DNA of 64,000 nucleotides from the NCBI GenBank assembly GCA_001643675.2, contig LSRY02000010.1, positions 248,001 to 312,000 on the forward strand, in the 5' to 3' direction. The notes under the pieces were generated by a model. It worked only from the letters and a program-made list of their open reading frames with translations, was not told where the DNA came from and did not search any database. Numbering within the stretch: position 1 is the stretch's first letter; each line of letters starts with the position of its first letter. Position numbers and translations under genes: made by a program. Positions 10,450 to 33,223 of this stretch are shown one piece after another. The stretch comes from Monocercomonoides exilis PA203. Taxonomy: Eukaryota > Protista > Preaxostyla.

Positions 10450-10535
10450 AACTAATTAATTAATTAAAATGAAAACAAAATAGTACGAATAATAGAAAAA
10501 ACTTTTAAAAACTTTAAAAAGAGCTTTGGAAAATT

Positions 10536-10880: not shown

Positions 10881-10941
10881 TATCTCTAGGCGGAATACTT
10901 CAGACAAGAACACCAACATGTTTATTTTTTTTCAAACTTAA

Positions 10942-11784
10942 ATGACAAATGTTTTGAACGCGAAACTTGCGTTAATGTTAATGCAGAAAATACAGTATCA
11001 ACAAATCGCAAATGAAGTGAACGAAGTGAAAGAAGTTGTCGAAAATGTTAGTGGTGAGTCAATAGAACACATCAGAAACTTATCACAAATTAACTCAAAA
11101 ATAACCGGGCTGGAGAGTGATATAACTGAAATGAATGCAAAACTTGGGTAAAAAGCGAGAGTTTTCAACACTTACGAAGACATGAGTGAGTGGCTGAGTG
11201 TTCAAGATAATGTGAATACTTTGCAAATAGGTCAAACATTCTATATTGTTCTGAAAGATGTTCCTGATTATTGGTTTGATGGAACACAATTTTTGGAGAT
11301 AGAAACTGAGATAATAACACTCGAAGATTATTACAACAAAACGAATGTTGATGCAATGGTGGAAGCTGCTGTTAATGCTTTGTTCAACAAGATTTACCCA
11401 GTTAATTGTGTTATTATGAGATACAGTGCTGACGATCCAAACACACAATACACTGGTACAACATGGACAAAATTGACCACTGGCAGATATGTTAAGTTAG
11501 GCGTAATTGCTGGAGAAACTGGTGGTTCAGCCACAATGACAAGTTCATCGACAAAATTGACTGTTGATCAAATGCCTTCACATTCTCATTCGTTAATACT
11601 TTTCTAACAAGGTGGATCCAATCATAATGGATATTCTCTTGGCGGACACTTTTCAGAAAACAATAACGGTGTAATGTGTGGGGAAGGAAGCACCAACGAA
11701 GTGGGAGGTGTTCAAGGTCATGCTCATACTGTGTCAGTGACTCCATCATATCTCACAATTGAATTTTGGCGTCGAACTGCCTAA
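10942..11784 (+). pseudogene. Phage baseplate/tail-fibre-like protein (T4 gp10 C-terminal-like domain), two in-frame TAA stops
   Basis: ORFs 10942 and 11182 plus 11608-11784 are one frame with TAA at 11149 and 11605. Coiled coil, then VPDYWFDG, then IYPVN..DPN..GTTW..GRY..GETGGS..LTVDQMPSHSH..GHAH..PSYLTIEFWRRTA-stop. Confidence 0.75.
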
Positions 11785-13022
11785 CTTTGAAACATAAAAT
11801 AATTTTTGACAGCATCTGGAATCGTTTGATATGTTAAACTAACAAACTTTGTGAAGCATATCGGTAATTCCACAATTTCTTCAGATGGGATAATGGAACA
11901 AATAACATTACCGTGTTTGTATTCAATAAATTTTGCTAAATAATTAAAATTCCTTCGTTTCTTCGCAAATGCGTTTGACTTATAAAAGTGAATCATCAGT
12001 GTATAACCCTCAGAATAGTTGTGCATACTCTTTTTCATTTGTTGTTTCGTGAAATTTTTCAATGACTCCTTCACTTTACGAATATACATACCTTCAAGCT
12101 CCAAATCATTTTCAACTTCTCTGGGAGAATGCAAGTTGAAATAAGCTGAGTGTGGAGTGTCGTTGTAATAATCCACCAATTGTTGCATCATTCGTGGATC
12201 AGCCATGTTTCGAACATTATATCCAAAGCCATCTCTAAGTGTTCTGATCGCTCGATAAACAACACTGTTATGTTTCGTTTGTTTGCTGCTTGTGAAGAAT
12301 GTTTGTATTTCAATTTGTTCAAAGAAATTTGTTTGTCTCCTGCTTGTCCACACAGCTTCACGATCACTTCTAATGTGTTTTGCGTTAACTTGTTTTATCA
12401 GTTGTTCCAATGCTCTCAGCAATGCATTTTCTGTTTTATTGCTTATGGTGATAACCACAAGGAACTTCGTATTCACGTTAATTGCTACCATGAATGTGTT
12501 CAACAGTCTGTTTCGATCATCATTCAGTATAATAAGGTCAATCTCATATAAATGGAATGCTGGTGAGAAATATGGGTGTTGGAGTTTCAATAAGGGTTTT
12601 TGTTGATAATCAGCGGGGACTTCTTTTCTAAACAAAGGTTTGGACTTGAACGGAAAAATCAAGGGTTCAACATTATTTTTCGCAATATTCTTCTGTGTTT
12701 CCTTCTGTTGAATTCTTCGCATATGGAGTGGATAATGTTGGTCAATCTGTGGATTAAGTTCGTGGAGCAAATCTAAGTATTCATCATAGTATTGTCGGAC
12801 TGTTTTGTCACCATAATATATTTTTTCCATATTCTGTTCGATAAGTTTTCGTTTATCTGCATCGTGAGCTGTGAACTGTTTCTTAATAAATGATGACTCA
12901 GCTTCTAAATACTCCTGCTTCAAGAACGAATTGATAATTGTGGTCACATTATCTGAAGCTTTGTCCTTGTCCAATGACTGGAATAAATTATTCCATTAGT
13001 CAAAAATATTCTCCGAAGCCAT
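11781..13022 (-). pseudogene. Retroviral-type (rve) integrase of Maverick/Polinton
   Basis: YEIDL, FMVAINVNTKF, IRSDRE, NSVVYRAIRTLRD, YYNDTPHS. Upstream ATG at 13022 is in frame via a TAA at 12996-12998; the third acidic position reads Y. Confidence 0.85.
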
Positions 13023-13032
13023 TTTCAAATCG

Positions 13033-16000
13033 TTAAATAACACAATAATTCTTGGCCGATGCATTATACATGAATGATGCGCAACTTTCATCATCTAGCA
13101 CTACCATTTTCGTGTGTATTCCACTCAGAGCATTCTTTGTGATCCTCAGTTTTTTCATTTCACATTTCACATTCCTCAGGTTCAAAGATACAGACTCAAT
13201 AACAACATCATCAATCAGTGTTTGCAGGCAATCATTTACTTAAATTTCCTTTAATGTTCCATCCATTCCGATCACTTTAGCTGCAAAGCTCATGTAATTA
13301 TCATTGGTGTTAACCCCTTTGTTTTTCATAATCTCTATCCCATTGCATCGTATTGTGTAAGATTTTGGAGATAAAGTAATCATCCAATCACAAACTCTCT
13401 CAACAGTTAACCCCAACAATTTCTTTTGCTCCTTCACATCTGATGTTCCTGGAAACCAATATCCCACATGTTTGTTATTGAACTCGCGATTGATAAATAA
13501 TGCATCAAACCCCTGATTTATCCCGAGCTTGGAATGACCACAAATAGACCAATATGCACTATCAGTGTCACCTTCAATGAAATGAATACGTTCTAAATTC
13601 AAACATTTCATCATGAAGATGAAGACGAATCTGAGATACCACACTTTGGCGTTATCCAATGTCCATACCGCTGATTGCAAACAAGTGCAGCATGCTGCTT
13701 GTCTGGGCTGTTGTTCAACAGTGGACACATTAGCCCCCGGTTTCTGAGATGACACAAATGATAGAAATATTTGAGATCTCACTGTTTCTTCCTTCGATAA
13801 TAACGCTGTCTTTGGAAATATTTCAGTGTTCATACTATCATAAGCATACGATGAATTCAGCAGTAATTTCATAAACAGTGCTTCATTTTTGTTTCCCTCA
13901 GCAATAGCTTTAACCAGTTGATCCATCAAAGCACAAGCAAATGTTTTGAATACAGCGTTCTTGCTGAAGACAGCCATTTCCTTTAAATCATCGATCACAA
14001 GCCCACATTCCTTAATCATATAGAAGAGATGCTCGTTTGTGAAAGACATGAACTGGTTGTGAGTGCTAATCAATTGGGTGATTTTTGTCTCACGTTTGCC
14101 TATGTGTAATAACTGATGCTTCATTGTGTCCATCATTTTTGTTCCAACAATGTCTTCATTAGTGTTGAATGTTAAGTTTCTGATAATTGGTGGAAAAAAT
14201 AAACATTTGTTGATGTGTGATTCTTTGATATGTCCTTTCAGTGAAACAATGAATAATTTATCGTGTTCTGCAATGATTCTGTTCAGAACATCCATCTTTG
14301 TTGTGTAGAATTCACAATGCCATGGGATGTACATTCGTTTTCCAAAACAGTTCTTTATTGATGAATATGCTGATGGATACAAACTGTTGAAGTCCACACC
14401 CATAATGTGAGTCATGATGTTCGGAGTATTTTTTGATATTATCGTGTTGTCAGCATGGTGGAAATGTGATATGTGAGATTCGCCAGCAATGTTGATTCTG
14501 TGCATAACATTTGACAATCCCCCAGTTATCGAAGAACGTAATAACGAATATACTCTTGAATCATCGAGTGCGAGAGGCAAGTTATGATACAGCGCGAACT
14601 TCTTCATCTGTATTCTCAGTCTCGTGAGGTGTTCATCCCTGTCCGATTTCACAACATTGCAATACAAACACGAAAACTTCACATTATCTATTGAATGTCC
14701 TTTCGAATTATCTATTCTGTAGAGTGTGTGCTTATTGTTTGTAGTGAACGAAGCGTTGCACAAATGACATTTTTGTTGAAATAGTTCAACAGCCCAGTCA
14801 TAATCATCATTAGTTATTGAATTATTTCGCAAACTTTTGGCATCCTGAAGCTTGTATCCATCAACCATTTTCCTCCACTTTTCCGTTGTCAGTTTATATG
14901 GTTTCTAATATTTGGAAATAAAGTAATCAGCATGAATATCAAAGTCTGGATATGGTGGATAACCTGTGAATAATGATGGAAAATAACAGGACACAAACTT
15001 AGCAGCAGCTGCATTCGATGCTGCAGAAACTGAATGGATCATATCAATTTTGAAACGAGCGAATAAAATAATTTGATTTCTGATGGGTTTAATCATAATA
15101 ACAGTATCTTGCTCGTTATAATATTTGAAATAATCCCATCTGTTATTGAATTTCTGTTCATCATCAACATATTCGTTGTATTGTGTTTCAATCAGTGTGT
15201 TAATACCTTTCAGTGATGAGTGAAACGCTGTATGAGGGAATGGAGTGGTTTGAGTTAGCACTTCTTCATAATTAGATGAATTGATGGCTTCGTGTGGAAA
15301 CGCACCTTTCTCTTCACTTCCATCACCAAAGTCTTTGACAAACGAGTCAAAAGTTTGAGGAAATACATAATGTATTCGATCAACGAATCTCAATATGATA
15401 TGTTTGATGTTGTGAGATACCATAATCTGTTTGGCATGGTTCAGTTTACCAAGAACTGATGTCACAGCCAATTCTTCAGATATTTGATACGGGATGATAA
15501 ATGCGTTGTCGAAGTTCGATGAATTCCAGCCGATAGCATTAACAACTTTTGCATTATATGGGATATTTTCATCCTCATAACGATTTGATTCTGCAATTCG
15601 GTCAGCAATTGTAAACATTCACATGATCGCTTTTGTGATAAAACATTCACTATCTGTTGAATCTCGTTTATCGAAATACTGTGTGGACATTTCATCACTT
15701 ATTACCGCTGTCATTGTAATCGATAATGGTATTAGTTTGCTGACTGTCTGTGTTTTATCCCATGTTTCCTCTTCATCGGCAAACTTTTCTATTGTTTCAA
15801 AATCAAAAGCAATTAAATTCATTGTTGGTTTCCACTTGTCCATCATTTCGTGTGCAAGCAAGTATTCAGTTGTTTTGTTGTTCAAAATGGCTGTTGACTC
15901 TTGGACCGTTTTATTGTTTTTGTCTCTCCTTCTTTGCATTTAGCTACATGTTTTTCGAAAAGTTCAATACAATGGTTATCGACTTTGTAAGGTCTGGCAT

Positions 16001-17309
16001 ACGATAAACAATATGGGCAAACCTTCATTTTTGTCAACTTGTCTGGGTCAACAACGTGCATAATATGCATTCGCTCAGGTGCATTAATGAGCAATACATT
16101 CAAAGTTTTCTCAGCCTCAGGGTAAATATAAAACTGTGACAGGTGATAATTGTTTTTGGAGTTGTATGCATACAGATTAACGGAAACATTGAAGAAAGTC
16201 GTGAATTTGTCCATTTCTGTTGCAATATTTAATCCTTTGTGTGTTCTCAGATATGGTGTCAACAAACGTTGTTTACTGTTATCATAATTATAGAACTCAG
16301 CAAACAAACGCTTCGCTTCACACAACCTCATGTTGCTGCTGATCTTTCTATCAGCCGGCATTGTCAAAAAGGCTAATGCAATAAACATACAGATGGGGTA
16401 TTCACAATTAACGTGATTAACATTGTGTGTGGCAATGTGTTCCGCAAGCCCCGGGAAGTTCATCCCAATCTCTCGCAAGTAATACACCTTGAACATCACT
16501 GAAAATATTGCACACATTCTGTTTCTTGTGTCCAGAAAAGTTAAATCTTTGTTGTCTAGTATCCTCCTGTTCATTGCCTCTTTGAGTCTATCAACATCGA
16601 AGGCTGATGACACAATCATCGGTCTGGTTGTGATAAATGCTTGCTCACTGTTTGGTAGAACAGCATGGTATATGTACTGAGGTATTCTATCAATTTACCC
16701 TTCCAGTCTTTCGAATATCACACCAAAATCATACTGTATTTTTATCGGCATTTTCATTTTCTCTTGTTCGATAACATGTTTCAAGAAATTGACGATATTC
16801 TCGAATGAACAGATGCGATTGTTATAGTAATATCGGTAAGGTTCTGAGTCATCTGATACATAAGTGGGTTTCATTGATTTTCGTATACGCTCCAGTTCAA
16901 TCTCAAAGTCATGAACTTGGCTTAGGGGAAACAACAAAAGTGTACTGTTTTCTTCATCATCTGATTCAAGAGCTGTTTGTTCAATTTGTTGAGTATTGTT
17001 TGTTGACTCGTTAATGAATTGAAGCTTTTTCTTGAAGAATTGTTCTAATGCATTCTTCTTATCAAACTTATCAGCCTCGGTTTCAGCAATCTGGAACATT
17101 TGTTGAATATCTTCCATTATTTCGTCTGATATTTTTCGTTCGTTAGTCTCATGAAATGAACAGATGTCATCATAATCACTGTACTTGCCAGCATAACCAA
17201 GTATCGAAATATGTTGGTGAAACTGTGAGACTTTCGCAAAGTGATGAACAGCTGTGGGCTTAAACTTAAACTTCTTGCACAATTCAATTAATTGATTTTT
17301 ATTTAACAT
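13033..17309 (-). pseudogene. Protein-primed family B DNA polymerase with HNH/endonuclease-VII-like insert
   Basis: Exo I AFDFET, Exo II GWNSSNFD, KGAFPHE, Exo III YYNEQD; Pol A DFNSLYPS, Pol B KLLLNSSY, Pol C EGDTDS, KGVN. CxxC..TLYRIDNSKGHSIDNV..CxxCN lies between exo and pol. Five track ORFs join through in-frame stops (16695 TAA, 15619 TGA, 14905 TAG) and one frameshift near 15885; the frame continues past TAA 13240 to a final TAA at 13033. Confidence 0.9.
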
Positions 17310-17351
17310 TTTAATCACGAAAAAAATAAATTTTCTTTCACTTATTTTGAT

Positions 17352-18305
17352 TTATTCAATATCCATTGCTGATGGATCTGATGGAACAGATGACGAGGAA
17401 GCTGAGGCAGAGGAATCTCTGTATTTGTGTACAATATCAATAAAAGGATTGGAATACGCTTCATTGAGATTAAGCTCAATTTGTTTAAGATCTTTCTTAT
17501 TGAATACTCCTTTAGCCACTTCAAGCGTTGTGTCAGAGTATCTTCCCATTAAACGTTCAAAGTCTCCTGCCGTTAATTTGCCATGCAATTTTTTCCAAGT
17601 TCCTCTGTTTTTCTGTAATAAGTGATGGACATCATTAGCTGTGTCATATGAACTTTATGTTGGGTCGATTGCAACGATCATATCTTTTATAAGACATCGA
17701 ACGAAAATCACGTTTGCAAATTTCATCACACAGGCTGAATATGCCAGTTTTTGTTTTTTCATAAAATCATCAATTGCCGTATCCTTCCAATCAACATCGT
17801 TAAGAATCGACTCAACAACCCTTCGTTTGAAGTCAATATTTATGTTAGTGACCTTGTGTCCTTGCACGAACTCCCTTAATGATTGTTTTTTTCGAACCTC
17901 ATAATCAAGGTATCTATCCACAAAATCCTGTGTTAATTTTTTTCTCTTTAATTCATCACCTGTTACATATCCGTCCGTTGCATATATCTTCCCTTTGGGA
18001 TCTTTCCATATGATTTTGTCAGGAGTTGCCGGGTTATTATCATGATCAATTTGGTCAAACGTCCAGGCTTTATCTCTCCAAAGCTTCCTCCGTTTTAGAT
18101 TATCCTCTCCAGATTTTTCTCCGATCAGTTCTTTAATCGTCCGTATCTCACGTTGTTGATTAATTACGATGTCGTATAAGTCCTCCATTTGCTTGTCATG
18201 ATCACGTTTTTGTTTAGGTTTAGGTTTAATCGTTTTTCTTTGACCTAGTTGTGCCGCAATATCTGGCAACGATATCACACTCTTTGATGAAGTCATTGTT
18301 TTCAT
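17352..18305 (-). pseudogene. Hypothetical element protein (~317 codons) with one in-frame TAA
   Basis: Track ORFs 17655-18305 and 17352-17588 share a frame; only the TAA at 17655-17657 separates them. Confidence 0.6.
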
Positions 18306-18316
18306 AGGAGTGAAAA

Positions 18317-19220
18317 ATGATAGATAGTGATGCGAAACAGCTTGTTGACGAGATCAACGTTTTATCATTAGAAAACTGTGTCAATGAAATGATGGAAGAC
18401 ATGAACGATAATCTAACAGATGAGTTGCAGACTGAGATACACCCTGACTTATCCTTCAAACGCAATTCTGTTTCATTACTCGTGAGGGCAAGATGAAGTG
18501 GTAAAACATACAGTGTGTTGTACGAAACGGCGAAAGTTAGTGAATTGAACGATCTGTACACAAGATTTCCAGAAATTCAATACAGTCCATATTCGCTGTT
18601 TGTGTACATTTCTGATAAAACAATAGATAGAACATTCGCGAGAATGGAAAAGTTCATTAACATCCCCATTGTGCAAGTGCGTTACAAAGAAGCATTTCAA
18701 ACATTAACCGATATAAGCAGAACCAAAGAACTGCACAATCGCATTCGTTCTGGTGAACAATATGATGAAGATATTCAGCAAGCAGTATTTGATTCATTGA
18801 ATGTCAATGATTCATAACAAAAACATCATCACACCGCAGTTTTTATTCGATGACTGAATGGAAATATTCAAAAAGAAAGATTGCATCTTCCAACTGTTAT
18901 TCGAGAATGGACAGCCAATGATCACACACTTCTTATTCTTGCAAGATCCAAAAGGAATAAGTAGTGAGGTGAAAGCTAACTTAGATGCATTGTGGATTTT
19001 TGGTGAATTCTCCAAACAGAAGTTCAACTATGTGTATCATCAACTGCCGACAAGCAAAGATCGTGAAGAAATGCGGAATATTTACAAGTATCTGAACAAA
19101 AATGATGTGATGCATTGTTCGTTTAACACTGACGAAACTGTCATTAAAACAGTAGTTAATGAGACAATGTTTAAGAAAGATGATGACAAAACAACGACAC
19201 TGAGAAGACGAACAGTATAA
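18317..19220 (+). pseudogene. Virion genome-packaging ATPase (A32/FtsK-HerA type)
   Basis: ATG 18317; Walker A region SLLVRAR*SGKT (TGA at 18494); Walker B FLFDD before 18858 after a frameshift; FLFLQD motif C and downstream NLDALWIF. Confidence 0.75.
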
Positions 19221-19238
19221 ATGAAATAATATGAATGT

Positions 19239-19601
19239 TCATTCACTTAGCATTTTGAATGTTTTCAGTGCTTCAATAACGACTTCCATCTGCTTTGCCA
19301 ATGTGTTGATGGAATCAATGATACCGTCGAAATCTGGATTTTGTTTATCTTCGTTGATGGTACTTTGCTCGTGACATTTCTTTAATGATATTTTACCTTG
19401 AAGTTTGGTGATTCGATATCCAGGAATGTGAAACTGTTTGTTCAGCTTGCAAGTGGTCAGTTTATTCATCTCCTCTTCATTATCAGCGAGATATTCTTTA
19501 AACTCCTGAACTGTTTCAAATGTTCTGATGTCAGGAGAAAAAGGTTCAATGATAGTTAAATCTGGTAATTCTTTTCTAATAGTCTTAGATGTTTTTGACA
19601 T
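19239..19601 (-). CDS. Small uninterrupted element protein (120 aa), function unknown
   Basis: ATG-to-stop ORF convergent with the ATPase (18-bp gap); IIEPFS..TF.T..EF and TTCKLNKQFHIPGYRITK segments plus a C-terminal coiled coil. Confidence 0.6.
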   Translation of the reverse strand: MSKTSKTIRKELPDLTIIEPFSPDIRTFETVQEFKEYLADNEEEMNKLTTCKLNKQFHIPGYRITKLQGKISLKKCHEQSTINEDKQNPDFDGIIDSINTLAKQMEVVIEALKTFKMLSE

Positions 19602-20930
19602 CTTTTGAAGAAGATAAAATACATTTATTGATTCTGTTTCACATTATCACTTTATTTAAGAACACTATTATTTATGTTTCATTGATGAAATTTGAAACAT
19701 AATGTGAGGTGTTTGGTTTTGTGATTGATTTGAATTAGATTATTATTATTTATTTATAAATTTTTATTTTCGATATCGATAAATTATTTATTGTTTAATT
19801 TTGATTGTCATTAAGCACTTTTCATTAAGCACTTATCATTTATTACTGTGAATTAGGTTTTGATTTTGAGTTCTAAATTCCCTGCGAATTTGACTGCTGA
19901 GCAGCTATGAGCAACACTGTCTCATATATCGCAAAGAGGCATGATTTATTTGATTTGACAAATGTTTGAAAATTTGTCGCCTCTGATGGGTATTGAACCC
20001 TTGATTTTAATAATGAAAGGCCATGGTATTCCCCTTAAGTTATAAAAGCTAAAAATAAATTTGCATATTTCATATTTTCTTTTATTTTTAAAGATAATAA
20101 ATGAACATATTTTTTTATCGATACCAAACACCATTGCAATCATTAACACCCATCGACATTAATTACAACACCTCACCCCCCACAAAACGTTACCACACAA
20201 CCTCCACTTTAGAGACTCAACTCCCGAAAGCATTTGTGAACTCCCAACGAATAAGATACATTCACGTTATTTAGTACAAACTGATCAAGAAAATCGATCT
20301 CAATAAAGATCATCCCAACGAACTCGTGGATGGGGACAAAGTCTCCTTGAGCAACTTCGTAGCGAACACTATTGCACTTGATGAACCCCAGCATGTATCT
20401 CTTCATGCCGATTTAATTCACGAGGACAGAGACAACGACAGTTTAGTGCGATACTGCAATAATATATCAAAAACGAGACAAATATTAATAGTTCATCAGA
20501 CGAGATAGCTTCAAAGTGTGGTTTCAAAACTTGGATGGAACACTGTTGGATATGACAAATGTGAAGTTCATGTTGAAGAACATGCTGGAGTATTTGAGTG
20601 GACTTTCACATTGATGAAATACAACTGACCACACACGTTTGTTGTATCATTAGTTGAATCGTCAATTATTTCAAACAGTGTCCACTGAAGCGCTATGGTG
20701 GATAGCCAATGTCAATATTTTTTGAACAAATGGCATTATGGTGGATTGTCACATAGATGTTTTTCATTTGATTTGGTGGTTGTTTTGGTGTATTCAACTT
20801 GAAAAAGTGTAAATCGGTGTCCAGAATACGAAATTGTGGTAATGTCTGAGACTCAGCAGAGGGATTTATAGGTTAAATCTCCGTGCTGGAAGCGTTGACA
20901 GGCAGTCCGGATCTTTAAATATCATCTGAG

Positions 20931-21132
20931 AAGAGCTGCCAACATGCTATTTTTACCAACATGAGCATTTAACTCCTTATTTATCATGATTTTGAGGGTT
21001 TTTATTTATTTTCGATTGCATCATCATTCTGCCACATTGCCACATGGAATCGTTGGTGGAATATAACTGGTGGCACACACTTCTTGTATCATTGGTGTAT
21101 TAATGATTCAAAAAAAACGAATATGTTTTGTT
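20931..21132 (+). repeat. Left arm of inverted repeat flanking the primase-helicase
   Basis: 20931-21096 is the exact reverse complement of 23805-23970 (166 bp); near-identical to 21132; degenerate similarity continues outward to ~20630. Confidence 0.95.
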
Positions 21133-21434
21133 GTTACAAACAATTATCACACTGGCCCGGGTCAATTGGGCAGTTAATTTAGTGCTGTGGCGTTGAAATA
21201 TTGGGCTAAATCTCCGAGCTTTTCACCTGCACTGTGTGCACCGCATCAATTGTATCCTATAAATAATGTGGGCAAACGGGTGAACTGAGCATAGTGGGCA
21301 AAACACATTTAATGTGAAAATTAACTGTTATCGTTCATTTTCGACATTTCCTTTAACATCATCTTCCCCGTAAATTTGCGTAACAAAAATAAATCTGTTT
21401 CAAAAAAAATTTTTGTTTTTTTAATTTTTAAAAA

Positions 21435-23770
21435 ATGACAAACCCCCAAACAGACACTGACAACGTGATCCAACAACTAATTGATTCAATGTCAACAGAA
21501 CAGCAAACGTTGGGAGAACGAATGAAAGATCACATTGTTGACTTGTTCGACTACAAGAAATACTCTGACAAGAAGCAAGGTCAACGCCACACTGGAACAG
21601 TTGTCGATATCAGTAAATGTGAGGATCTTTGTGTCGTTGATGTTGACATTAACAAATCCCTTCAAACTGAACAAACGAAAGCCATCAGGAATTCCATCCT
21701 CAAGATACTCCCCCGAAATGTGGGACTTGTACAAACAGCTCATGGCTGTCTTCATATTTATTGTGAGCTGTGTGATTATCTCCTCAAATGTTCGTCACAA
21801 ACCAAAGTGTTTACGAGTCCAGAGTACGATATCGACATTTTTGCAGGTATTGTGGATGAAAAACATAGGTTTGTTGCACAAGTTGACTCTTCATACAGAG
21901 AAATGAAAGATGGCAAGAGAATCGTCACCAAATACATTCCCCTCAACAATTACAGGGAGCTCAGGGATTTTTCTCCACTCGAAAGTGTTCTTGACATCTT
22001 CGGTATTGATCTCAAAACAGAGAATTCATCAGCCGTAATGGAAGCTGAACCACACAATCTTCTCACACAAGATAATGTCGTTGATATGTTTCCAACTGTC
22101 GCTCTTGCTCTTATCGATGGACTCAAAGATGTTAAAATACATAACGACACAGGTTCTTTGTTACTTGATTCTGAGTTAACTCTTTTCTGTTGTTTGCAGC
22201 TCTCAATTCTCTTATCAACATTAATGGTTTCGTCAACGGATTGATATATTTTCTTTTCAATCAAATCAAAGAGACAGCCTCTCTTACAGCAAATGCAATC
22301 ACTAACTTTGAACAGAAACGAAACAGATACAGAGACTGCAAGTCACATCCATTTGTTCAAAAAAAATTGTCAAGAGACGGAATCCAACATATTACAACGA
22401 TGTGATCATTCCACTCCTCAGAATAGAGAATGAGCAAAATGAATAACCTCCACGAGAGATTACTGCACATGAAATAGATCTCAACTCATCGTTCTCGTTC
22501 TCTGAAATCAGGGATCAAGCTTGTCGAAAACAATACTCCTCACTGCCTGAAGTCGCTGAAGATCTCACAAAAGTTCTGAGGTTTGTTGAAGCAAGGATGG
22601 AATTCATTGTGAAAGAATTTGACATTCACACCTCTTGTTATTCGATAACATTCAAGACAAAACCTGCAATGAACGAACTGTTCAAAACATAAAAACTCTG
22701 GCATGATGATAAAAAGACTTTCACTGTTGAGACAGCTTTCGAACAATACTCTCATGTTCTATCGATTGATGGGGTGAAGTTCTTCACAGATAACCCTCGA
22801 ATATTCTCTCTATTCCATGGGTTCAAATGCCAAATGGCAAACGAACAAAACGACGAAATCATCAAACCATTCCTTGATTTCACACGAGAAGTTTTCGCCA
22901 ACGACAACGAATAACTCTATCAATACATCCTCTGTTGGATTGCGTCAATTGTTCAAAATTCTGGTCATAAAGCAGAAACATCACTTGTTCTCAAAGGTTT
23001 GCTAGGAATTGTAAAGAATGTCTGGACAAATGTCCTTACTAAACTGTTGGCAGGATATTCATGTCCGAATGTCACAGGGATTGCAGAACTGACAGGACAG
23101 TTCAACTCCATCGTCGAAGGGAAAATGCTTATTGTTCAAAACGAATTGAAGAATGTTGGAGATGATCAAACAGCTAACTTTTATGCATTGAAGAGTATAA
23201 TCACGGATTCAACAATCAGAATCAATGAGAAGAATCAGCCAAGAAGAACAGCTGAGAACGTCGCTTATTTCATATTTGCGACAAATCACACGTACTCGGT
23301 GAAGATTGAGATTGATGACAGAAGATATGTTGTTTGTGATTGTAACTCAAAAAACAAGAATAGTCTCATATTCTTCAAGGATTTCACAAGCTCTTTCGAC
23401 AATGAATTCCATGAACAACTTCTCCGTTATTTCCTCAGCAAAGATCTCTCCAATTTCAACACAAGGGATAATCCAACAACGGAGGCAAAGGAAGATATCA
23501 TTGCAGCATTACTCTCAGTTATTGAGGTGTTCTGTCAGGAGCATTGCAATAAACTCAAAGAAGTGTGAAGATGTTCCGAAGCACTCAGTTACAGACCAGT
23601 TGAATTCAAGAACTATCACTTATTCCAATTTGCAATCAAAGACAGATGTGAGAGAATACGAGAAGGTGGAAGAGGAAACAAAATCCAACGTTATGAACTC
23701 AAGCCAGAGTGTGAACCACTTTTCAAACGACAAGAAGATGAAGATTACATGGACTGTTCTGTTGAAATTA
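21435..23770 (+). pseudogene. Primase (AEP/Prim-Pol-like) fused to superfamily 3 (D5-like) helicase
   Basis: CVVDVD and TAHGCLHIY primase motifs; Walker A KGLLGIVKN, Walker B LIVQNE, LKSIIT..RINEK, FATNH, DDRRY. Frameshifts near 22190 and 22360; in-frame TAA at 22444, 22690, 22912 and TGA at 23566. 3' end approximate. Confidence 0.85.
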
Positions 23771-23970
23771 ACAAAACATATTCGTTTTTTGGAATCATTA
23801 ATAAACCAATGATACAAGAAGTGTGTGCCACCAGTTATATTCCACCAACGATTCCATGTGGCAATGTGGCAGAATGATGATGCAATCGAAAATAAATAAA
23901 AACCCTCAAAATCATGATAAATAAGGAGTTAAATGCTCATGTTGGTAAAAATAGCATGTTGGCAGCTCTT
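23770..23970 (-). repeat. Right arm of inverted repeat flanking the primase-helicase
   Basis: Reverse complement of 20931-21132; degenerate extension to ~24200. Confidence 0.95.
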
Positions 23971-24807
23971 TTCAGATGAAATGAAAAGATCCGGTTTACT
24001 GGTTTACAGGTTGACGCTTCCAGCACGAAGATTTTTGTCAATATTTCCCTTCTCCCAGCATCTCGATGTTTCCACAATTTGGAATCCTGAACACAGGTGG
24101 ACACTTTTTCTGTGCAAAAATATTGATGTTGGCAATCAACTTTAATTCCATCGTAACTTCTGTATGATTCAATCAACAAAACAAATAATGTGAACCACTT
24201 GTTATTTTTCGACAATTTGCCCATTTTGCCCACTTTGCTCAGTTTGCCCGTTTGTCCATATTATTTGGAGAATGAAATTGACACGGCGCATCCTGTGCAC
24301 AAAATGCAGGTGAAAAGCTCGGAGATTTATAACAATATCTCCATGCCACAGAATCACTCACATCACCTGACCAGTTTAACCGGTGAAGGCAAACAACCAT
24401 AAACTTTTTCCATCAACTCATCTCACATCTCATCACTTTCGATTAGCTTTCTCCTCAATATCTTAATCAATTTCTACTGTTTTTAAGATACATGTTCATT
24501 GGAATCCTCAGTTTTATCATTTCGTTTTTCCTGAAACTGTTTTATTTGTTTCTGTCGAGCCGCTTTTGCTTCTTCCACAGTTGTGAATATCTTCTTCAGA
24601 CCCATTTGGTATAAAACAAAAAACGAAATCAATTATTTTTATTTGCTATTTCACCCACGCTTACATCACATGTTCAACACATGTTCAACTCATGTATTTC
24701 ATCAACGAAAACACAATTTTTCACACAATTTCACCAATTATTTACCAACTTGAACATAACTTTTGTTAATCTTCCAGTTAATCTTTTTGCTAATTCTCCT
24801 CCTTGGA

Positions 24808-25054
24808 GATATGGTATATCAGCTATGGATATATCTCGATTACACCTATCAATAACTCCATCTTTATAGAACATCACTAAATATCTAATCATGAGAAACC
24901 CCATAAGAATATCAGCAATAACCCTCGATCTCTAACTTATTATCATTGCTTATTCCAAATTATGATACAAGATGATAACAGCCAGTAGATATTCATAAAT
25001 CGATAATATTGATTGACCTAATCGAGATGGATCTATAGCCGAAAACCATATATC
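24808..25054. repeat. Long imperfect hairpin near the right end of the viral element
   Basis: gatatggtatatcagctatggatatatctcgatta (24808-24842) pairs imperfectly with taatcgagatggatctatagccgaaaaccatatatc (25019-25054); further patchy pairing inside. Confidence 0.6.
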
Positions 25055-25657
25055 AAAAACACAATAAAATCGTTCCATTTTTTGACATTTTTGAAATGTT
25101 GGAAAACTTTATGTTTTGATTTCTAGGATACCTGTTTTCGGAAATGAAAATCAATATAATATCAAAATTTGAGAAAGTGTTATAGAGTTATGAGTTAAGC
25201 AATTATTCAATGCCATGCGCAAAAAAAACTTTAAAGTCCATATTTTCCCCCATTTGTGCGTATTCGGTTATTTGAATAACAAAAAAATCATTTATGCACG
25301 CTTTTTAATTTTCAATCTTATTAGGAACCTTTTTTCACAAATGATAATCGCAAAAAGAAAATAATTACGACTTCTTATGTATTTTTCACCTTTATTAAAT
25401 TTGACACAAACTCATATGTGTGATTATTTTTGAAATCATAAAATTTTTTTGGGGTTTGTGTTATTTTCTCATTCGCAGTTAATTGCAAAAGAATTTTCAA
25501 AAAAGTGTCACTTGCTTTTAAATTGTAGTCTTTCAAACGCATGTTGTCACGGAAAGATTAAGTTCATTTCTGATTTTAATGAAAACATGGAATTAATTTT
25601 CAAGTGTTTTTGACCAATTGTTAATTCGAAAATTTTGATAGAAAAAAATATGAAATC

Positions 25658-25816
25658 AAAAAAAAAGAAAAGAAAAAAAAGAAAAAGAAAAAGAAAAGAA
25701 AAAAAGAAAGAAATAAAGAAATAAAGAAATAAAGAAAGAAAAGAAAAGAAAAGAAAAGAAAAGAAAAAAAAAAGAAAGAAAAGAAAAGAAGAAAAAAAAA
25801 GGAAAAGAAAGAAAAA
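25658..25816 (+). repeat. (GAAAA)n polypurine simple repeat
   Basis: Direct reading of the sequence. Confidence 0.95.
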
Positions 25817-25828
25817 TTTTACACACAT

Positions 25829-26087
25829 GGGTGATTATTTTTGAAATCATAACTTTTTTCGGTGTGTCGATAATTATGAAAAATCATTGTCATTAACCTT
25901 ATAATTATCATTTGAATATAAATGCTATTTAATAGTATCAAAAACAAAAGGTTGATGAAAAATAAAGAAAGAGATGTTATTTATTAGAATTATCACTTTT
26001 CATTATTCATTAACAAAACTTTTAAAACAAAATTGAAAAAAACCGAAATTTTTGTTCAAACAAATATGATTTCAAAAATTATCACCC
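25829..26087. mobile_element. MITE with GGGTGAT(T/A)ATTTTTGAAATCATA TIRs flanked by AT
   Basis: 25827-25851 vs reverse complement of 26065-26089 match at 24/25; a third copy lies at 25416-25440. Confidence 0.6.
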
Positions 26088-26331
26088 ATATTTATTCTGA
26101 AAATCGTATTGTGAGTTAAAAAAGTGAAATAAGAAAAGAAGGCCAAATATAACATAGAAAAGGTTCAATACAAGTTAAAAGAAATAATGCAGGAATGAAG
26201 AATTGAGATGCTATGGCTTTTACGGTCGGTAAGAAATATTTTCTTCATGGCCAGCAAGTTTATGACTTAGATCCTATTTTTATCAAAAAGATAATTGACT
26301 TTTTTAACACAAATATTACTTTTAAAAGATA

Positions 26332-27449
26332 CACCAAAAATAATTCAAAATCGAAAATTAATAATTCGAATTCGGAAATTAATTATTCAATTTCGTAATT
26401 TATTAATTCGATTTCGAAAAACTTTAATTCAAAATCGAAAATGATTATTTCAATTTCGAAATCCATTATTAACTGAAATTTTTAATTTTTCTCAAGAATG
26501 GATTTCAGAAAAATTCAAGTTATTTTTTAACCACTCATATTTTATTACTCAAAAAAAACTTTTTTTTTTTATTGCAACAATCAATAAATCAATTCTTTAA
26601 AATTTTTTTTCCATTTTTGAAAATCATCATACAAATAATAATAATATAATAGTTGGGTGCAAAACCCGCACTTGTGCAAAAACCCGCACACTTGACATTT
26701 TCTTTCGAAATACTCTTCCACATTCATATATGTGAAAGCGTTTGGCATTTTGATGCCACCTATAACCAAAAACAAAAATTTTTGATCTTTTTTGATCTTT
26801 GGATCAAAAATTTTTGTTTTTGATTTTTCATTCGAAATACTTAATATTGGACAAAAAAAAGTTATAGGTTGCATCAAAATGCCAAACGCTTTCACATATA
26901 TGAATGTGGAAGAGTATTTCGAAAGAAAATGTCAAGTGTGCGGGTTTTTGCACAAGTGCGGGTTTATGCACACACCATAATAAAAATTCATTCTATTGAA
27001 TCATTTAATAAAAATTGAAAAAATTTAATTATGATTATTGAATTATTTCTTCACAATAATGTGATTGTTTCATTGGCAAAATTTTGAATAATACCTGTTT
27101 TAATCATTAAAATGTATTTATTTCCTTTTCAAATTTACTTCAATCAATAAATTTTCATTCAAAATGAAAGAAAATTTTAAAATGAAAATGCGTCATTTTT
27201 CAAATATAGATAAACATAATTTGCTGATGAGACAAAAATTTAAAGAATTTATAACCCCAAATACAAGTTATTCATTCCACAAAACAAAAAAATTTTCGTT
27301 TCGAAATCGAATTATTCTTTTTCGAAATCAAATTTATAAATTACGAAATAAAATTATTAATTTCCGAATTCGAATTATTAATTTTCGATTTTGAATTATT
27401 AATTCCGAAATTGAATTATTCTTTTTCGAATTTGAATTATTTTTAGGTG
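26332..27449. mobile_element. Foldback/MITE-like element with ~21-bp subterminal tandem repeats, TA-flanked
   Basis: ta|cacc...ggtg|ta termini; aataattcaaaatcgaaaattaataattcgaattcggaaattaat (from 26339) is matched in inverted orientation around 27357-27401. Confidence 0.7.
26662..26965. mobile_element. Young MITE with 105-bp inverted arms and an internal hairpin
   Basis: 26662-26766 vs 26861-26965 differ at one position; the spacer holds a 20-bp IR (26768-26787 / 26802-26821). Confidence 0.85.
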
Positions 27450-28095
27450 TATATTTCAGAATGCTGTTAAAAATGTGAATTTAAAAGTCAATTAATTTAT
27501 TCATTGATTGTGGCATTTGTTTGCTTATAAAAAGTTAAAATAAGTTTCAAAGAAAAAGGGTTGAGACAAAAATCTGACGTCAATGTGAAATGTGAACCAT
27601 TCATCATGTTTCACCAGAGTTAATAAAATAGAAAAGAAATTTGACAAAAATCAATTTTTTGAAAAGATTTTTTTCCATTTTTTGTTTTTCAACATTTGCA
27701 CACGAACAACAAATCGAATAAAACGAAGCAAATAATCGAATTTGAAAAAATCGTTAACTGATGGACATGTTTCTTGGTTCTGTTCTTTTCAAGCATTTTG
27801 TCCATGACGATAAAAATAGGGTGATTTATAAACCCGAACTTTTTTTTTATTTTGGTTTGATATAAAAAAAATTTTTTTTGAAACAATCATGTTTTAATTT
27901 TGAAAATTGAAATGATCAATAATAAACATAATCAACAAGTTCTCTTTTTACAGTTTTTCTGGAATTTTTCTGCTTTGATTCATCATCCAAAATATCATCA
28001 TTCAAAATGTGGGATTTATTAAATCTTCTTTTTTGGGGCTTTTCAGCTTCGAAAAGAATTTTTTCTTCTTTTTCATCATTATTATCTTTTCTTTT

Positions 28096-29512
28096 CTAAT
28101 CTTCTTTCATTTTCTTTTCTTTTTTCCATTCTTCAAGAAATTTTTGTTCAGTAATAATTTTTCCAAAAAAATCAAACCTGTGTGTTCTCTTTTTCAGTGT
28201 AACCGAAGGTTCCTTTGGAAGTGTTGATAATACGGAATTCCATTCGTTTAAAAGCACGCCGTTTTTCATGAACGAAGAAACAACAGTTACAGGAAGCAAT
28301 TCCGTCTGAAGAGCTTGTGGAAGAACGTTGGAAATGGCCTCACGTCGAAGAGAAATGGAAGAATCTGGAGGCACAAAGAAAAGAGAGTTGATGCATTTTT
28401 TGAATACAGCAAATACACCACGATCAAGAGGTTGTGTGATGTGTGAACTGTGAGGAATAAAAGTGACGACGTCAATGTTGTTATCAGCAAATTTCTGCCA
28501 TATGTCAGGCTGAGCCCGAGAAGAATGAGAATCCAAAAGCAGAAGACATCTCTCGTTGGTTTTCATTAATATTTTCCTTCTTTCGATGATTCCAGTTAAT
28601 AAAACCTCTTCTGCGTATCTTTGAAATATGCTTTCCGTCATCCATCCATCCTTGTTATCCCAAACATCAATGAATGCGCTCAAAAGAACTCGCATTTCCT
28701 TTGGTAATTTGTGGCATGGCCACAACACAATGCTTTTGAGAGAATATCCATCTGCAGCAGCTGCGACAACCAAAGTGGCATTTGGCATGTTTGTGGGTGT
28801 TGTGTGAAATCCAGCTGGAACTCCTGTGGGGTGAATCACAAGATTTTTGAAGGAATCCGATAAGCGGAGTGAAGATTCATCGGTGTCAAAGATCAGAGAA
28901 GGTGAATAATGATGAGAATTGTGAAGATTTTGTAGAAGCTCGTAGAAACGAAGCAGAGCTTGTTGATTGGATACTGAAAGACGTTGGATATCCACATTTC
29001 TGGGCATGGACGCTTTGAGCTCAGAATTCCTTTTTGCAAAAAGATATGGATATGATTTGGACACACTGGAATTTTCATCAACATCAGTTTCTGATCGTCT
29101 TTTTTTGTCGGATAGGACGGATTCCATCTGAAAAATATTTATTATTAAAAACGAAATATAAATAAATGTGTAATCAAACTAATTCTCTTGTTCTCTTTGC
29201 ATTTAAACTTGTTCCGGATAAACTTTCGTTTTTTATAACTCCAACAATAATATTCTTGTCATCTTCATAGAATAGTTCTGGCCTGCCAGATTTTCCAACA
29301 TCTCTTCCACTTTCAACCGCTGAAACTGCTCTGATAACTGCAGAACGCGAGAATTCTTTTGAATTAATTGCGTCGACAATTCGTACATGACCATCTACAA
29401 CAATACGTGCCATGCGTTCTAATCGATTTTCAATTCTTCGATATTCAAATGACATCTTTTTTTCTCGAAGAATTAACTGTCCTCGTTCTTTTTTATTTTC
29501 AACAACACTCAT
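28096..29512 (-). CDS. pogo/Tc5-type DD35D transposase, two exons
   Basis: Exon 1 has an HTH and GRP motif; phase-0 GT-AG intron 29179-29128; exon 2 has DTDESS, AAADG, DGWMT, LLLLDSHSSR and IPHSSHITQPLD. Confidence 0.85.
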
Positions 29513-30354
29513 AACAAAAAAATTCTGGTGATGATCTAATTCTAATTTTTGGAAAAAAAATTTTTTTTGGAATGAAAAAAAATCAAAAAAATATTTTCGA
29601 TTAAATTCTAACTTAGTCAGCCCCGTTGCTATTACCTAATTTCCTCAGGGGAGGCACTAATCGAGAGATGGAGGAGCTAACCCTCCCCCATCAGAGATTA
29701 GGTATAGTAATTTAATCAAGAATTTCAGTCATTGATTTTTCCTTATATACCAGAGCTTTTTCGTATATATCTATGATATGTGCAAAGAATAACTGATTGT
29801 GAATTGGAAAAAATTAATTTGATTTGATTGAATCAAATATGATTTTACTCAATCAGAATCTTGATCACTTTCAAATTTTGTTATATACCACTTTCGATCG
29901 ACAAAACTTTGTTTGTTCTTTTTCGTTTGATATTTGCATTTTGGGGTATTAAGACTTTCTTCAAACTAATTATTTATGTTTTTTTCGATATTTTTACAAA
30001 CTGTCAAATTGTATAAGTGTTTCTGATTCGGATCGAATCAGTTGGATAAAATCATTTTTTTTTGAACGAAGTATATTGTGCCAACAAAAAAAACCAACAT
30101 TATATATTCATTTTTATCTCGTTTCAGCTTTTCCAACTTTCGTTTTTTGAATATCACTTCGATTAAACATCAAAACCACAATATGGTCTAATATGATTTT
30201 TATTCATAATTTTTTGAAACATCAGATATTTTTTTTAGAAAAAAAAGTTGTTAATAATAAATGATTATAATTTATAAATAATTAGAAACATGTCATTAAA
30301 AGCGAATGAATGATATGAAGATAAAAAAGCACTGAGAATAATATTCAAAGTATT

Positions 30355-30651
30355 TTATTGTGAATTAAAAACAGGAAAATGTATTCTCTCTTGAGACGGA
30401 GTTACAAATGAAGCTAAAGAACCAAAAGAAAAATTTCTTTCGTTCTCGGAGCTCATTTGAGATTTTAAGGGTGATTGATTTGTAGATGTTGAATTCAATG
30501 AAGGAATTGACGTTGAAGATGATATTGTTGATGCTGATCGAGAAGAATCTGAAATTGAAGAATCTTCCAAGATCGAAAAATCAGATTGAATTGTTTCAAA
30601 ATTATGAGACGATGATAAAAACGACATAAAAGGATTTGTTGATGTTGTTGA

Positions 30652-30740
<89 letters not shown>

Positions 30741-32221: not shown

Positions 32222-33223
32222 GATAAATTTTCAGAAATATTTATTAATAACAATTTTGACCATTATTTCAATTTTTTCTTAAATGATCATAATCCCCGAA
32301 TTTCTGAATTATGAATTGAGTCAATCAAAACTGATTTGATTGAAGATAAATAGAATTAAATCGATATATTTTATATTGAATATATTCAAATTGAAATGCT
32401 TAAATAAATATAGTAAAGTTCTACTGAAAACAATATAAAAAATATAAAAAGTGGGAAAAATCAACTTATTATTAAAAAAAAAGTCCGGGTTAATAAATCA
32501 CCCTAAAATTTTTTCTTCTTTAAGAATTTCGCACTTCTCATAAAATTGACTTTTTTTGTTATAAAGTGGCATTTAAAAATTTACGATGATACGACTGCAG
32601 AAAAAGCTAGGAACAAAGATTTTTTGATTAAAAGCAAGTATTTTGCACCTAAAAAATTTAATTCAAAGTAAAAATGAAGGGAGCAATTAATTTTTTGTAC
32701 AAAATTTTGATTTCATAAAATTTTAGTAGTTCATTATTTCACAACTTGAAAATTTTAATATTTATTATTTATATTTTCGTAACATGTTGACATTCAACTC
32801 GAATTTTTATGAATTGAGTCCTCGCAAATTTTAATAACTTTTAGATGAGAAATGCATGATGGCATCCCACTTGCATAATGAACAGAAGAATGCCCAAAAG
32901 AAAATGAAGGAAAAAAAAAAAAGCAAATACAAAGTTTTGTAGATATAAAAAACACATTAAAAGAAGAAAAATTCAGCTGTGGTCATCATCCCGGCGTATG
33001 CAGGTCTCATACACACACAACGAAAAAAAAAAAAACATATGAAATGAATGCAACAAACATTCGTTTGTGAAATCAAATTTGAGAAAATTTATTCACAATC
33101 ATCCACAAGGATTCGATCAAGCTTTTCAAACACCCATAACTTACAGAAAGTGCGATAAGAATAGTGAATAAAAATTAGTGTCCTACACGAACTAAATAAA
33201 TAAAATGCAGAACTGAACTCCGA

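Follow-up and report, generated by a model that had tools for sequence, protein, structure and literature searches.

A broken primase-helicase gene of Monocercomonoides exilis between inverted repeats with an exact 166-bp core

Primase-helicase pseudogene and its genomic context

In the window, a stretch of 64,000 nucleotides from Monocercomonoides exilis PA203 (contig LSRY02000010.1, positions 248,001 to 312,000), we found a primase-helicase pseudogene located between the two arms of an inverted repeat (Table 1). As already noticed in the preliminary description, the gene is broken. When the intact relative P0001 was used as a query, tblastn needed three frames to span it (21435-22226, 22190-22375 and 22360-23706), from which it follows that there are two frameshifts, within 22190-22226 and 22360-22375. 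In addition, the gene harbours four in-frame stops (at 22444, 22690, 22912 and 23566), and its native stop is lost by replacement, the frame reading through to 23875. Read evidence was taken from contigs built at k=31 from four runs (X1-X4) of one sample in one study; contigs of single-copy depth in X2 and X3 match the frameshift zone (22091-22408) without any difference.

The pseudogene is 81-84% identical to annotated M. exilis proteins (84% to a 'putative Poxvirus D5 protein'), and its closest protein matches are those of M. exilis, Trichomonas vaginalis, Streblomastix strix and Histomonas. Its helicase core (22915-23568) matches PF19263 (E 4.3e-17, 63.2 bits with a cut-off of 27.6), and PHROG DNA primase families match the pseudogene at E 4.6e-16. 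Furthermore, a profile of the family matches the C-terminal region of NrS-1 (chains 6k9c and 6k9e, E 4.5e-27), as does the structure model of P0001 (pLDDT 80.9, E 4e-18). With full-length AsfvPrimPol, the same model gave an alignment of ~890 columns (E 1e-13), yet TM-scores of 0.33/0.28; such low scores would be expected for a flexible multi-domain chain. The N-terminal part (21432-22244) had no match to a Pfam family, and the translations contain candidate D-x-D and H motifs of the kind that marks the AEP superfamily. The window copy has the DUF5906 helicase core in common with the D5-like, NrS-1-like and ASFV C962R PrimPol-helicases, but differs from these in being a pseudogene and in having an N-terminal part without a sequence-family match.

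Table 1. Features of the locus, in positions of the window
Feature	Position	Strand	Remarks
Decayed single-copy Maverick/Polinton-type block (context)	11781..17351	-	rve-like integrase ORF and broken protein-primed PolB (pPolB)
a2, incomplete third copy of the inner end of module a	20611..20655	+	direct orientation to left arm
Left arm a	20801..21132	+	inverted copy of the sequence after the primase-helicase stop; blastn against right arm
Exact core of 166 bp, left copy	20931..21096		string identity, exact limits
Module b	21157..21303	+	130-280 bp upstream of the ATG of the gene; inverted partner of 24224-24383
Primase-helicase pseudogene (putative AEP PrimPol-like N-terminal part and superfamily-3 helicase, DUF5906)	21435..23772	+	
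Right arm a'	23770..24110	+	3' flank of the gene, from its last codon; weak similarity to 24140
Exact core of 166 bp, right copy	23805..23970		string identity
Module b'	24224..24383	-	outside right arm; inverted partner of 21157-21303

Four to 10 kb to the left of the cassette lie a pPolB and an rve-like integrase ORF. The integrase ORF (11781-12995) matches PF00665 at E 5.1e-5 with 23.9 bits, which is below the cut-off of 32.6. The polymerase is broken into ORFs at 13240-14904, 14905-15618, 15882-16694 and 16695-17351; judging from the adjacency of these ORFs it probably reaches 17351, the further ORFs having no family match. For the ORF at 13240-14904 we found 71 homologues of 971-2770 aa, nine of them with PF03175 (best E 1e-143, 45% identity). 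The block also gave a PHROG DNA polymerase match (E 6.9e-6) and an HNH match. It is single-copy at ≥80% likeness, and a contig of 9101 nt spans 10475-19518 with 0 differences. The sequence between the block and the cassette (20103-20504) is likewise unique.

To the right of the cassette, no virus gene was found in Pfam and PHROG scans. The cassette lies outside the Maverick-type remnant, with the rve-like ORF and pPolB to its left only, and the idea of a self-contained unit nested in the virus is not supported in that form. Among the ORFs of the window that were scanned (40 with Pfam, 16 with PHROGs), none matched a capsid, packaging ATPase or maturation protease family. For the capsid, this absence is weakly shown, because a survey of protist insertions describes metamonad capsid genes as hard to detect by sequence (PMC10120064). 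A relaxed self-comparison gave no inverted pair enclosing 11-25 kb, except for one AT-rich match of 58 bp (7219-7276 / 26633-26690, 79%). A kinase fragment had been guessed for the high-copy DNA right of 24341, which has no Pfam match, and was rejected.

According to the same survey (Bellas et al. 2023, PMC10120064), insertions in protists combine one replication gene, for pPolB or a primase-helicase, with a gene for an rve integrase or a tyrosine recombinase. The locus resembles the metamonad Maverick/Polinton elements described there in having a decayed pPolB and an rve-like ORF nearby. In contrast to these elements, the many-copy form is limited here to the primase-helicase gene with its flanks, whereas the polymerase block is single-copy, and the window has no detected capsid, ATPase or protease gene and no element-wide terminal repeats.

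Inverted repeats, identity profile and copy number

String comparison confirmed that the left copy of the core is the reverse complement of the right copy over 166 bp without a mismatch; the core has exactly this length because identity stops on both sides. A repeat search showed near-identical arms of 210 nt (20907-21116 / 23785-23994, 97%), and gapped blastn of 20801-21132 against 24110-23770 gave 86.9% identity over 343 columns with 13 gaps (E 4e-112). Divergence of the outer extensions, also claimed before, was found as well: 20801-20906 is at 67.8% (80 matches, 24 mismatches and 14 gap columns), and weak similarity reaches further outward to 20698 (20698-20722 against 24140-24116). By segment, identity amounts to 83% in 20907-20930, 166/166 in the core and 92% in 21097-21132. 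Taken as one tract of 226 bp (20907-21132), the inner part is 96.9% identical, compared to 68% in the outer ~106 bp (Fisher p = 1.3e-13). A chance origin of an exact match of 166 bp is impossible. When the whole window was compared with itself, only three pairs with a length of 100 bp or more met a threshold of E 1e-10.

The right arm begins at the 3' end of the helicase, as the preliminary description stated. Intact M. exilis proteins end with '...SVEIN', which corresponds to the codon at 23770-23772, and since the arm begins at this last codon, it is the 3' flank of the gene. The left arm is located ~300 bp upstream of the start codon. Modules b and b' form a second inverted pair (75% over 160 columns, E 3e-25, blastn). 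The partial third copy, a2, is 75% identical to the inner end of the left arm (20611-20654 against 21053-21096), from which it lies 442 bp upstream, and 76% identical to 23804-23848 as an inverted match in the repeat search. The order of the modules is a, b, gene, a', b', so that the two inverted pairs are interleaved and not nested. Therefore, one simple inverted duplication cannot explain the layout. Tandem sub-repeat units within the arms were considered and dropped, as only short and weak matches were seen.

The arms themselves show no sign of function. For an ORF of 107 aa at the right arm (23937-24260, minus strand), a search of proteins of 58-188 aa gave no homologue at E ≤0.1, and the ORFs of the left and right arm are not conserved with each other. 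Neither an Rfam family nor a tRNA was found in the arms, and they fold no better than shuffled sequences (z = -1.15 and -0.04).

Both the gene and the module at its 3' end are members of a family with many copies. In X1, 4009 contigs matched a 6-kb stretch at ≥90% likeness, of which 574 were at ≥99%, 1236 at 95-99% and 2199 at 90-95%. Summed contig depth, which is a rough proxy and not a copy number, was 1200-2750 over the gene compared to ~30 on the unique flank. The arm types are repeated too, with summed depths in X1 of 297 at 20706-20906 and 1472 at 23922-24122; relative to single-copy depth, relatives of the outer arm reach ~5-10x for the left type and ~21-49x for the right type. At least 33 positions within 21467-23425, among the best 40 of 221 variants, are those at which nearly all family contigs differ from this copy (~1.7%). 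At position 21019/23882 in the core, the letter of the window and the commoner letter of the family both occur at multi-copy depth, the former being the rarer one.

Origin of the identical core

We interpret the locus as a dead copy of a many-copy D5/NrS-1-like primase-helicase of metamonad Maverick-type endogenous viruses, with flanking arms whose identical core likely derives from recent gene conversion; we give this reading a probability of about 0.5. Among the readings of the preliminary description, recent conversion fits best, since identity steps abruptly from 68% to 97-100% inside a many-copy family that offers many donors. Paired replication origins, also proposed there, would be a further candidate reading. 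Arm-to-arm or ectopic gene conversion occurs in inverted and dispersed repeats, and short conversion tracts typically show up as a jump in identity around an exact centre. As in such cases, we see a short perfect tract in diverged inverted copies of a family with many donors; here, it is solely from the identity profile that we infer conversion. As a rough estimate, if both arms were decaying at ~1.7%, ~5-6 differences would be expected in 166 bp, and none was observed.

Under this reading, it would have taken two or more rearrangements or insertions, in a region rich in repeats, to bring the two arm copies together. A later conversion tract of ~226 bp would have run from arm to arm, or from a third family copy to one or both arms, and would have erased the differences within the tract, leaving the outer ~106 bp at 68%. 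The repeat would have no function of its own at this locus, although homologous recombination between its arms could still invert the 2.6-kb segment from time to time. A point against this reading is that the outer part of the left arm has relatives of its own in the genome: the arm may have come in on its own, as an insertion of a second subtype, and not as a local duplicate. Moreover, contigs at k=31 can neither bridge an exact repeat of 166 bp nor connect the central part of the core with one arm or the other, and they do not tie the conversion tract to this locus.

The core sequence is present in other family copies too. This speaks against conversion, as the identity could therefore reflect family-wide conservation and not a local event.

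Such conservation is the basis of a second reading, which we regard as rather doubtful. The inner 226 bp would be a constrained cis element (a 3' UTR/terminator, an origin or a packaging signal) that is near-invariant in young copies, and two family fragments of different arm subtypes would have landed in opposite orientation with their identity inherited. In line with this, the stop codon marks the exact start of the arm, the length of which is close to that of the average M. exilis 3' UTR, given as 312 bp in the genome report (PMC8767320). Judging from depth, each of the two outer-arm types also has relatives of its own in the genome, and among the variants listed (the best 40 of 221 and 40 of 550) only 21019/23882 falls in the core. 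However, the listed variants favour high depth, which makes the lack of core variants weak evidence. Moreover, the enclosed gene carries six disabling lesions and many family-discordant positions; in a copy of such an age, private changes would be expected in 2 x 166 bp too. Neither a structure nor a family signal was found in the arms.

We consider it unlikely that a small primase-helicase unit, mobile or episomal, has the arms as its terminal inverted repeats, with these repeats as ends or origins. Such a unit would be either a Maverick reduced by deletion or a satellite-like element spreading alone. In principle, a protein of this class (PrimPol with a helicase, as in NrS-1) would need no other polymerase to begin DNA synthesis. 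The copy numbers point in the same direction: the gene and its flank are many-copy, the adjacent pPolB/integrase block is single-copy and unique sequence lies between them, so the gene with its flank may to some extent have spread independently. In one search, no M. exilis protein was present among the 71 pPolB homologues, while at least five clusters of D5-like M. exilis proteins were found, on contigs of four different sizes. On the other hand, the interleaved pairs are not nested like the ends of one element, the outer ends of the arms fade out without sharp termini, and inspection of the sequence around the b/b' pair revealed no target-site duplication. Furthermore, the depth of the arms is not twice that of the gene.

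The proposed unit of inverted repeat, primase and inverted repeat was also sought in related loci from other collections, and no inverted repeat surrounds the gene in any of the four compared (L001-L003 and L030). Metagenome contigs yielded 29 loci, only three of which are close (43% identity); these are 1.6-2.9 kb long and have no inverted repeats, and in L001 another ORF follows on the same strand. A prokaryote genome collection yielded six loci, including L030 at 40% identity, which looks like a eukaryotic-virus contig binned with a bacterium. The gene in L030 is part of a compact virus-like gene set with an A32/Zot-like ATPase, and the primase-helicase is the sole gene common to L030 and the window. 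A viral contig collection yielded no relative (165 pattern matches, 0 relatives).

In a bolder version, which seems distinctly improbable to us, a PrimPol-helicase with its conserved 3' module would have escaped from Maverick-type viruses and would now be a self-replicating cassette of 3 kb, with the inverted modules as ends or origins that are kept identical by replication. Transpovirons, the analogy drawn in the preliminary description, offer a comparison, being small units that encode a replication protein of the helicase type and are flanked by inverted repeats (Yutin et al. 2013, PMC3671162). They accompany giant viruses as linear, plasmid-like molecules and have true terminal repeats. 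The repeats described here are chromosomal, a second pair is interleaved with them and they fade out at ill-defined ends; in addition, the enclosed gene is dead, and there was no sign of a giant-virus context.

That the perfect identity is an artefact of assembly or polishing, with mis-assigned short reads of the family having overwritten a few true differences, appears quite improbable. The M. exilis long-read assembly was polished with Nanopolish and then ten times with Pilon, and its authors report that multi-copy regions were polished unevenly (PMC8767320); a few true differences could have been lost if the window derives from an assembly of this kind. In addition, only 0.43-0.66 of the sampled 31-mers of the stretch are present in the four runs, and these runs, being from one sample and study, are not independent of the assembly. 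Nevertheless, the left flank and the first 30 bases of the core (20719/20720-20960) showed no difference in contigs of X1-X3, and the last 30 bases with the inner flank (21067-21334 or -21393) showed none in X2 and X3 and one gap in X1. These contigs of single-copy depth end at 20960 and start at 21067, i.e. k-1 = 30 bases into the core, which are the limits expected for a shared core of 166 bp at k=31. In X4, flank-anchored contigs at 20719-21013 (one gap) and 21024-21334 (one other letter) cover 156 of the 166 core positions. The right outer junction was matched in all four runs (23953/23954/23970 to 24251/24254, 0 differences). Finally, the window has the rarer family letter at 21019/23882, whereas consensus-driven polishing would give the majority letter.

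An ongoing flip-flop inversion of the 2.6-kb segment driven by the repeat, with both orientations in the culture, could hold alongside gene conversion and is very improbable: inverted near-identity of 166-226 bp is a workable substrate for homologous recombination, but the cassette has no adjoining recombinase gene, and the segment holds only a pseudogene, so that nothing would select for switching. Joints between opposite strands (21015 to 23741, 20671 to 24223 and 21295 to 24278) were rejected as evidence for inversion, since they correspond to deletions or to different orders of the modules; the simplest view is that they stem from other copies of the family.

Meaning for repeat-rich protist genomes

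In the literature searched, there was no printed account of the repeats of this primase-helicase family in oxymonads. Read as the outcome of gene conversion, the locus illustrates how pieces of endogenous viruses are shuffled and homogenised in protist genomes rich in repeats, and how a striking 'perfect' inverted repeat can be ordinary repeat biology. A noteworthy contrast is that the primase-helicase and its 3' module are many-copy, whereas the neighbouring polymerase/integrase block is unique. If the gene had indeed spread through the genome without the rest of the virus, it would represent a new kind of minimal self-replicating eukaryotic element.

The inverted arms and the enclosed pseudogene

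Direct string comparison showed that 20931-21096 is the exact reverse complement of 23805-23970 and that the match ends at those limits, which confirms the perfect 166-bp core of the preliminary description. Around this core, a repeat search gave ungapped arms at 20907-21116 and 23785-23994 (210 nt, 97%) and blastn gave gapped arms at 20801-21132 and 23770-24110 (86.9% over 343 columns, 13 gaps, E 4e-112). The outer extensions are diverged, as had also been described (Fisher p = 1.3e-13 for the contrast in identity between the outer arm part and 20907-21132). When the whole window was compared with itself, no more than three pairs of 100 bp or longer passed E 1e-10, namely the two arms, the second inverted pair adjoining them and an unrelated palindrome (26605-27023).

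Arm segments and selected open reading frames of the window
Feature	Position	Strand	Remarks
Arm segment	20801-20906		67.8% identity; 80 matches, 24 mismatches, 14 gap columns
Arm segment	20907-20930		83% identity
Arm segment (core)	20931-21096		100% identity
Arm segment	21097-21132		92% identity
rve, sub-threshold match	11781-12995	-	
Polymerase ORF	13240-14904	-	71 homologues, 971-2770 aa
DDE_1 ORF	28096-29178	-	inside 27817-32505
DDE_Tnp_4 ORF	31058-31666	-	inside 27817-32505

Within the primase-helicase pseudogene, the ORF 22915-23568 matches DUF5906 (E 4e-17), VapE-like domains and phage DNA-primase PHROGs. Its nearest database relatives, at 84-85% identity, are 'putative Poxvirus D5 protein' entries of M. 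exilis, followed by metagenome proteins (~60%) and those of Trichomonas vaginalis (57%), Streblomastix strix and Histomonas; 105 of 1250 candidate proteins matched at E 0.001 or better. In tblastn, an intact relative of 758 aa (P0001) covers 21435-23706 in three frames, implying two frameshifts. In-frame stops are present at 22444, 22690, 22912 and 23566, and the claimed decay of the gene was thus borne out. A profile of 25 family members matches chains 6k9c and 6k9e of the NrS-1 C-terminal region (E 4.5e-27), and the AlphaFold model of P0001 (pLDDT 80.9) matches the structure of this region (E 4e-18). The same model aligns with full-length ASFV PrimPol over ~890 columns (E 1e-13, TM 0.33/0.28). 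The profile and model matches make the label 'primase-helicase' sound where the helicase is concerned; for the primase part it is plausible.

Module order and origin of the arms

As previously noted, the right arm begins at the 3′ end of the gene: the C-terminus '...SVEIN' of two intact M. exilis proteins corresponds to codon 23770-23772, where the arm starts. In the window copy AAA comes next, and the frame stays open to 23875. The right arm is therefore the 3′ flank of the gene, and the left arm is this flank in opposite orientation. The left arm ends 24 bp from module b (21157-21303). This module is located 130-280 bp ahead of the gene's ATG and has its inverted partner b′ at 24224-24383, outside the right arm (75%, 160 columns, E 3e-25). 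With a and a′ as the left and right arms, the order on the plus strand is a, b, gene, a′, b′, whereas a, b, gene, b′, a′ would be expected from one inverted duplication of a single block. Given this order and a partial third copy of the arm's inner end (20611-20654), the layout requires two or more events, or else a set of modular repeats.

We favour, at a probability of about one half, the reading that the cassette is a dead fragment of a repeated endogenous-virus gene whose inner arms were homogenised by conversion. Several rearrangements would have brought the 3′ flank module to both sides of the gene in opposite orientation, and a conversion tract of ~226 bp would then have homogenised the inner arm part. 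Recent gene conversion had been proposed before and is kept here as the favoured explanation, in which the conversion step is one that we infer. Much less probably, the identity would instead be inherited, that of a constrained cis element. The arms contain no conserved ORF, no protein homologues of them were found, they match no Rfam family or tRNA, and their folds are not better than those of shuffles.

Relatives of the cassette and its neighbourhood

It is rather doubtful that the arms are the true ends of a small mobile unit. A search for the repeat-primase-repeat unit, suggested earlier for sites outside Maverick copies, found bracketing repeats in 0 of 4 short loci from other collections. 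Inverted repeats are absent from three metagenome loci (L001-L003, 43% identity), and in L001 the gene is followed by another ORF on its own strand. The fourth locus, a sheep-colon contig (L030, 1-7938) filed in a 'Bacilli bacterium' bin, encodes a primase-helicase with 40% identity to that of M. exilis within a compact, eukaryotic-virus-like set of intact ORFs (A32/Zot-like ATPase, 843-aa ORF). It has no inverted repeat near the gene start and no gene in common with the window besides the primase-helicase. Since the four loci lack such repeats, the unit is, as far as four short loci show, not a feature of the wider family. An AT-rich motif occurs in L030 at 47-76, 2405-2434 and 5274-5303, next to ORF ends; this contig is probably misbinned and derived from a gut protist or its virus.

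Among the viral contigs searched, no relative was found. Most metagenome relatives of the primase-helicase (P0004-P0075) are on contigs that exceed the gene in length by only 3-15% (2306-2553 nt in the case of proteins of 738-758 aa, for example), and pPolB relatives are on relatively longer contigs; this may reflect sampling bias, or the gene may have repeats as its immediate neighbours in those organisms too. For P0072 (primase-helicase) and P0116 (pPolB) alike, the longest contig measures 16062 nt, and the two genes may share one contig. Sections of PMC10120064 describe protist Maverick/Polinton-like insertions with primase-helicase genes and a Metamonada group of such elements, and sections of PMC3671162 discuss transpovirons and virophage primase-helicases. 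Our literature search returned no description of repeats of this family in oxymonads.

The neighbouring block 11781-17351 is a decayed Maverick/Polinton-type remnant. The best homologue of its polymerase ORF reaches E 1e-143 (45% identity); PF03175 is found in 9 of the 71 homologues, which include a 'DNA-directed DNA polymerase' of S. strix and no M. exilis protein. Further ORFs adjoin it up to 17351, with single stops between them. Pfam and PHROG scans of the window ORFs found no virus genes to the right of the cassette, and self-comparison found no inverted pair around the whole region. The cassette thus lies beside the remnant and not within it, contrary to one of the readings offered earlier, in which it was nested in the virus; its resemblance to its own family far exceeds that of the remnant to any other part of the genome. 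Next to the rve-like ORF, a 151-aa ORF (11152-11607, inside the single-copy block) matches phage tail-fibre PHROGs (E 3e-12); the decayed element could have encoded a fibre-like protein here, or the match could be due to low complexity.

Elsewhere, an AT-rich, very abundant foldback occupies 26336-27441 (summed depth 4400-11500), with 26605-27023 self-complementary (77% over 435 columns) and an outer pair at 26336-26488/27299-27441 (76%). Its centre (26732-26895) matches a plant miRNA model on both strands below threshold (43.9 bits, gathering score 85), most likely reflecting hairpin shape only. An inverted pair of 33 bp (27817-27849/32473-32505, 94%) encloses 4.7 kb that are probably one or two DNA transposons. 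A 734-aa frame (3538-5742; DDE_1 endonuclease domain, E 1.3e-12) is possibly an intact pogo/Tigger-type transposase. The uninterrupted 3715-aa frame at 49147-60294 has no Pfam match, and its GC skew is very strong (0.37-0.58 over 51-59 kb); it may encode a giant repetitive protein or be a repeat array open by chance. A frame of 1097 aa that is still open where the window ends (60706-63999; Phage_integrase, tyrosine recombinase, E 3e-6, just above cut-off) could be a Crypton-like or virus-derived recombinase.

Read contigs and copy number

A polishing artefact is an unlikely source of the perfect identity. In its favour, according to PMC8767320, Nanopolish and ten rounds of Pilon were used to polish the published M. 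exilis assembly, and the authors describe polishing as uneven in multi-copy parts. Four public read runs of one sample and study (X1-X4) contain 0.43-0.66 of the sampled 31-mers of the stretch and were used as k=31 contigs; the check covers three junction types, the right inner junction not being among the contigs listed. At single-copy depth and with 0 differences, contigs join the left flank to the core (20719/20720-20960, X1-X3) and cross the right outer junction (23953/23954/23970 to 24251/24254, X1-X4). The junction from core to inner flank (21067-21334 or -21393, X1-X3) is also found at this depth, where a single gap in X1 is the only difference. The contigs that end at 20960 or start at 21067 reach exactly 30 bases into the core, as expected at k=31 for a common 166-bp stretch, and the middle of the core is not assignable to one arm in such contigs. 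Flank-anchored contigs of the low-coverage X4 span 20719-21013 (one gap) and 21024-21334 (one other letter), and the frameshift zone 22091-22408 is matched without difference in X2 and X3. Ongoing flip-flop inversion, compatible with the favoured reading of a dead, conversion-homogenised fragment, is very improbable.

Summed contig depth does not equal copy number and serves here to tell 'many' from 'one' and no more. Over 10334-19004, depth at a likeness of 80% or above is flat (X1 33-49, X3 95-131), and a single X3 contig of 9101 nt spans 10475-19518 with 0 differences, so that this block is single-copy. The gene and arms are matched by thousands of short contigs; for 6 kb, X1 holds 4009 at 90% or above (574 at 99% or above, 1236 at 95-99%, 2199 at 90-95%). 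Across the gene, these contigs add up to a depth of 1200-3000 (X1) and 970-2860 (X3), which is some 10 to 90 times that of single-copy sequence. Each arm type has relatives of its own (X1 depth 297 at 20706-20906, 1472 at 23922-24122), 20103-20504 is unique, and 24341-27675 and 9000-10333 are repeats even more abundant than the gene and arms. The stretch 27676-28999 is many-copy too. In one X3 contig of single-copy depth (90), 19828 and 25077 are separated by 36 other letters; there may be another locus where these flanks adjoin without the 5.2 kb that include the cassette. Of all these findings, only the difference in copy number that sets the gene cassette apart from the polymerase block holds some promise.
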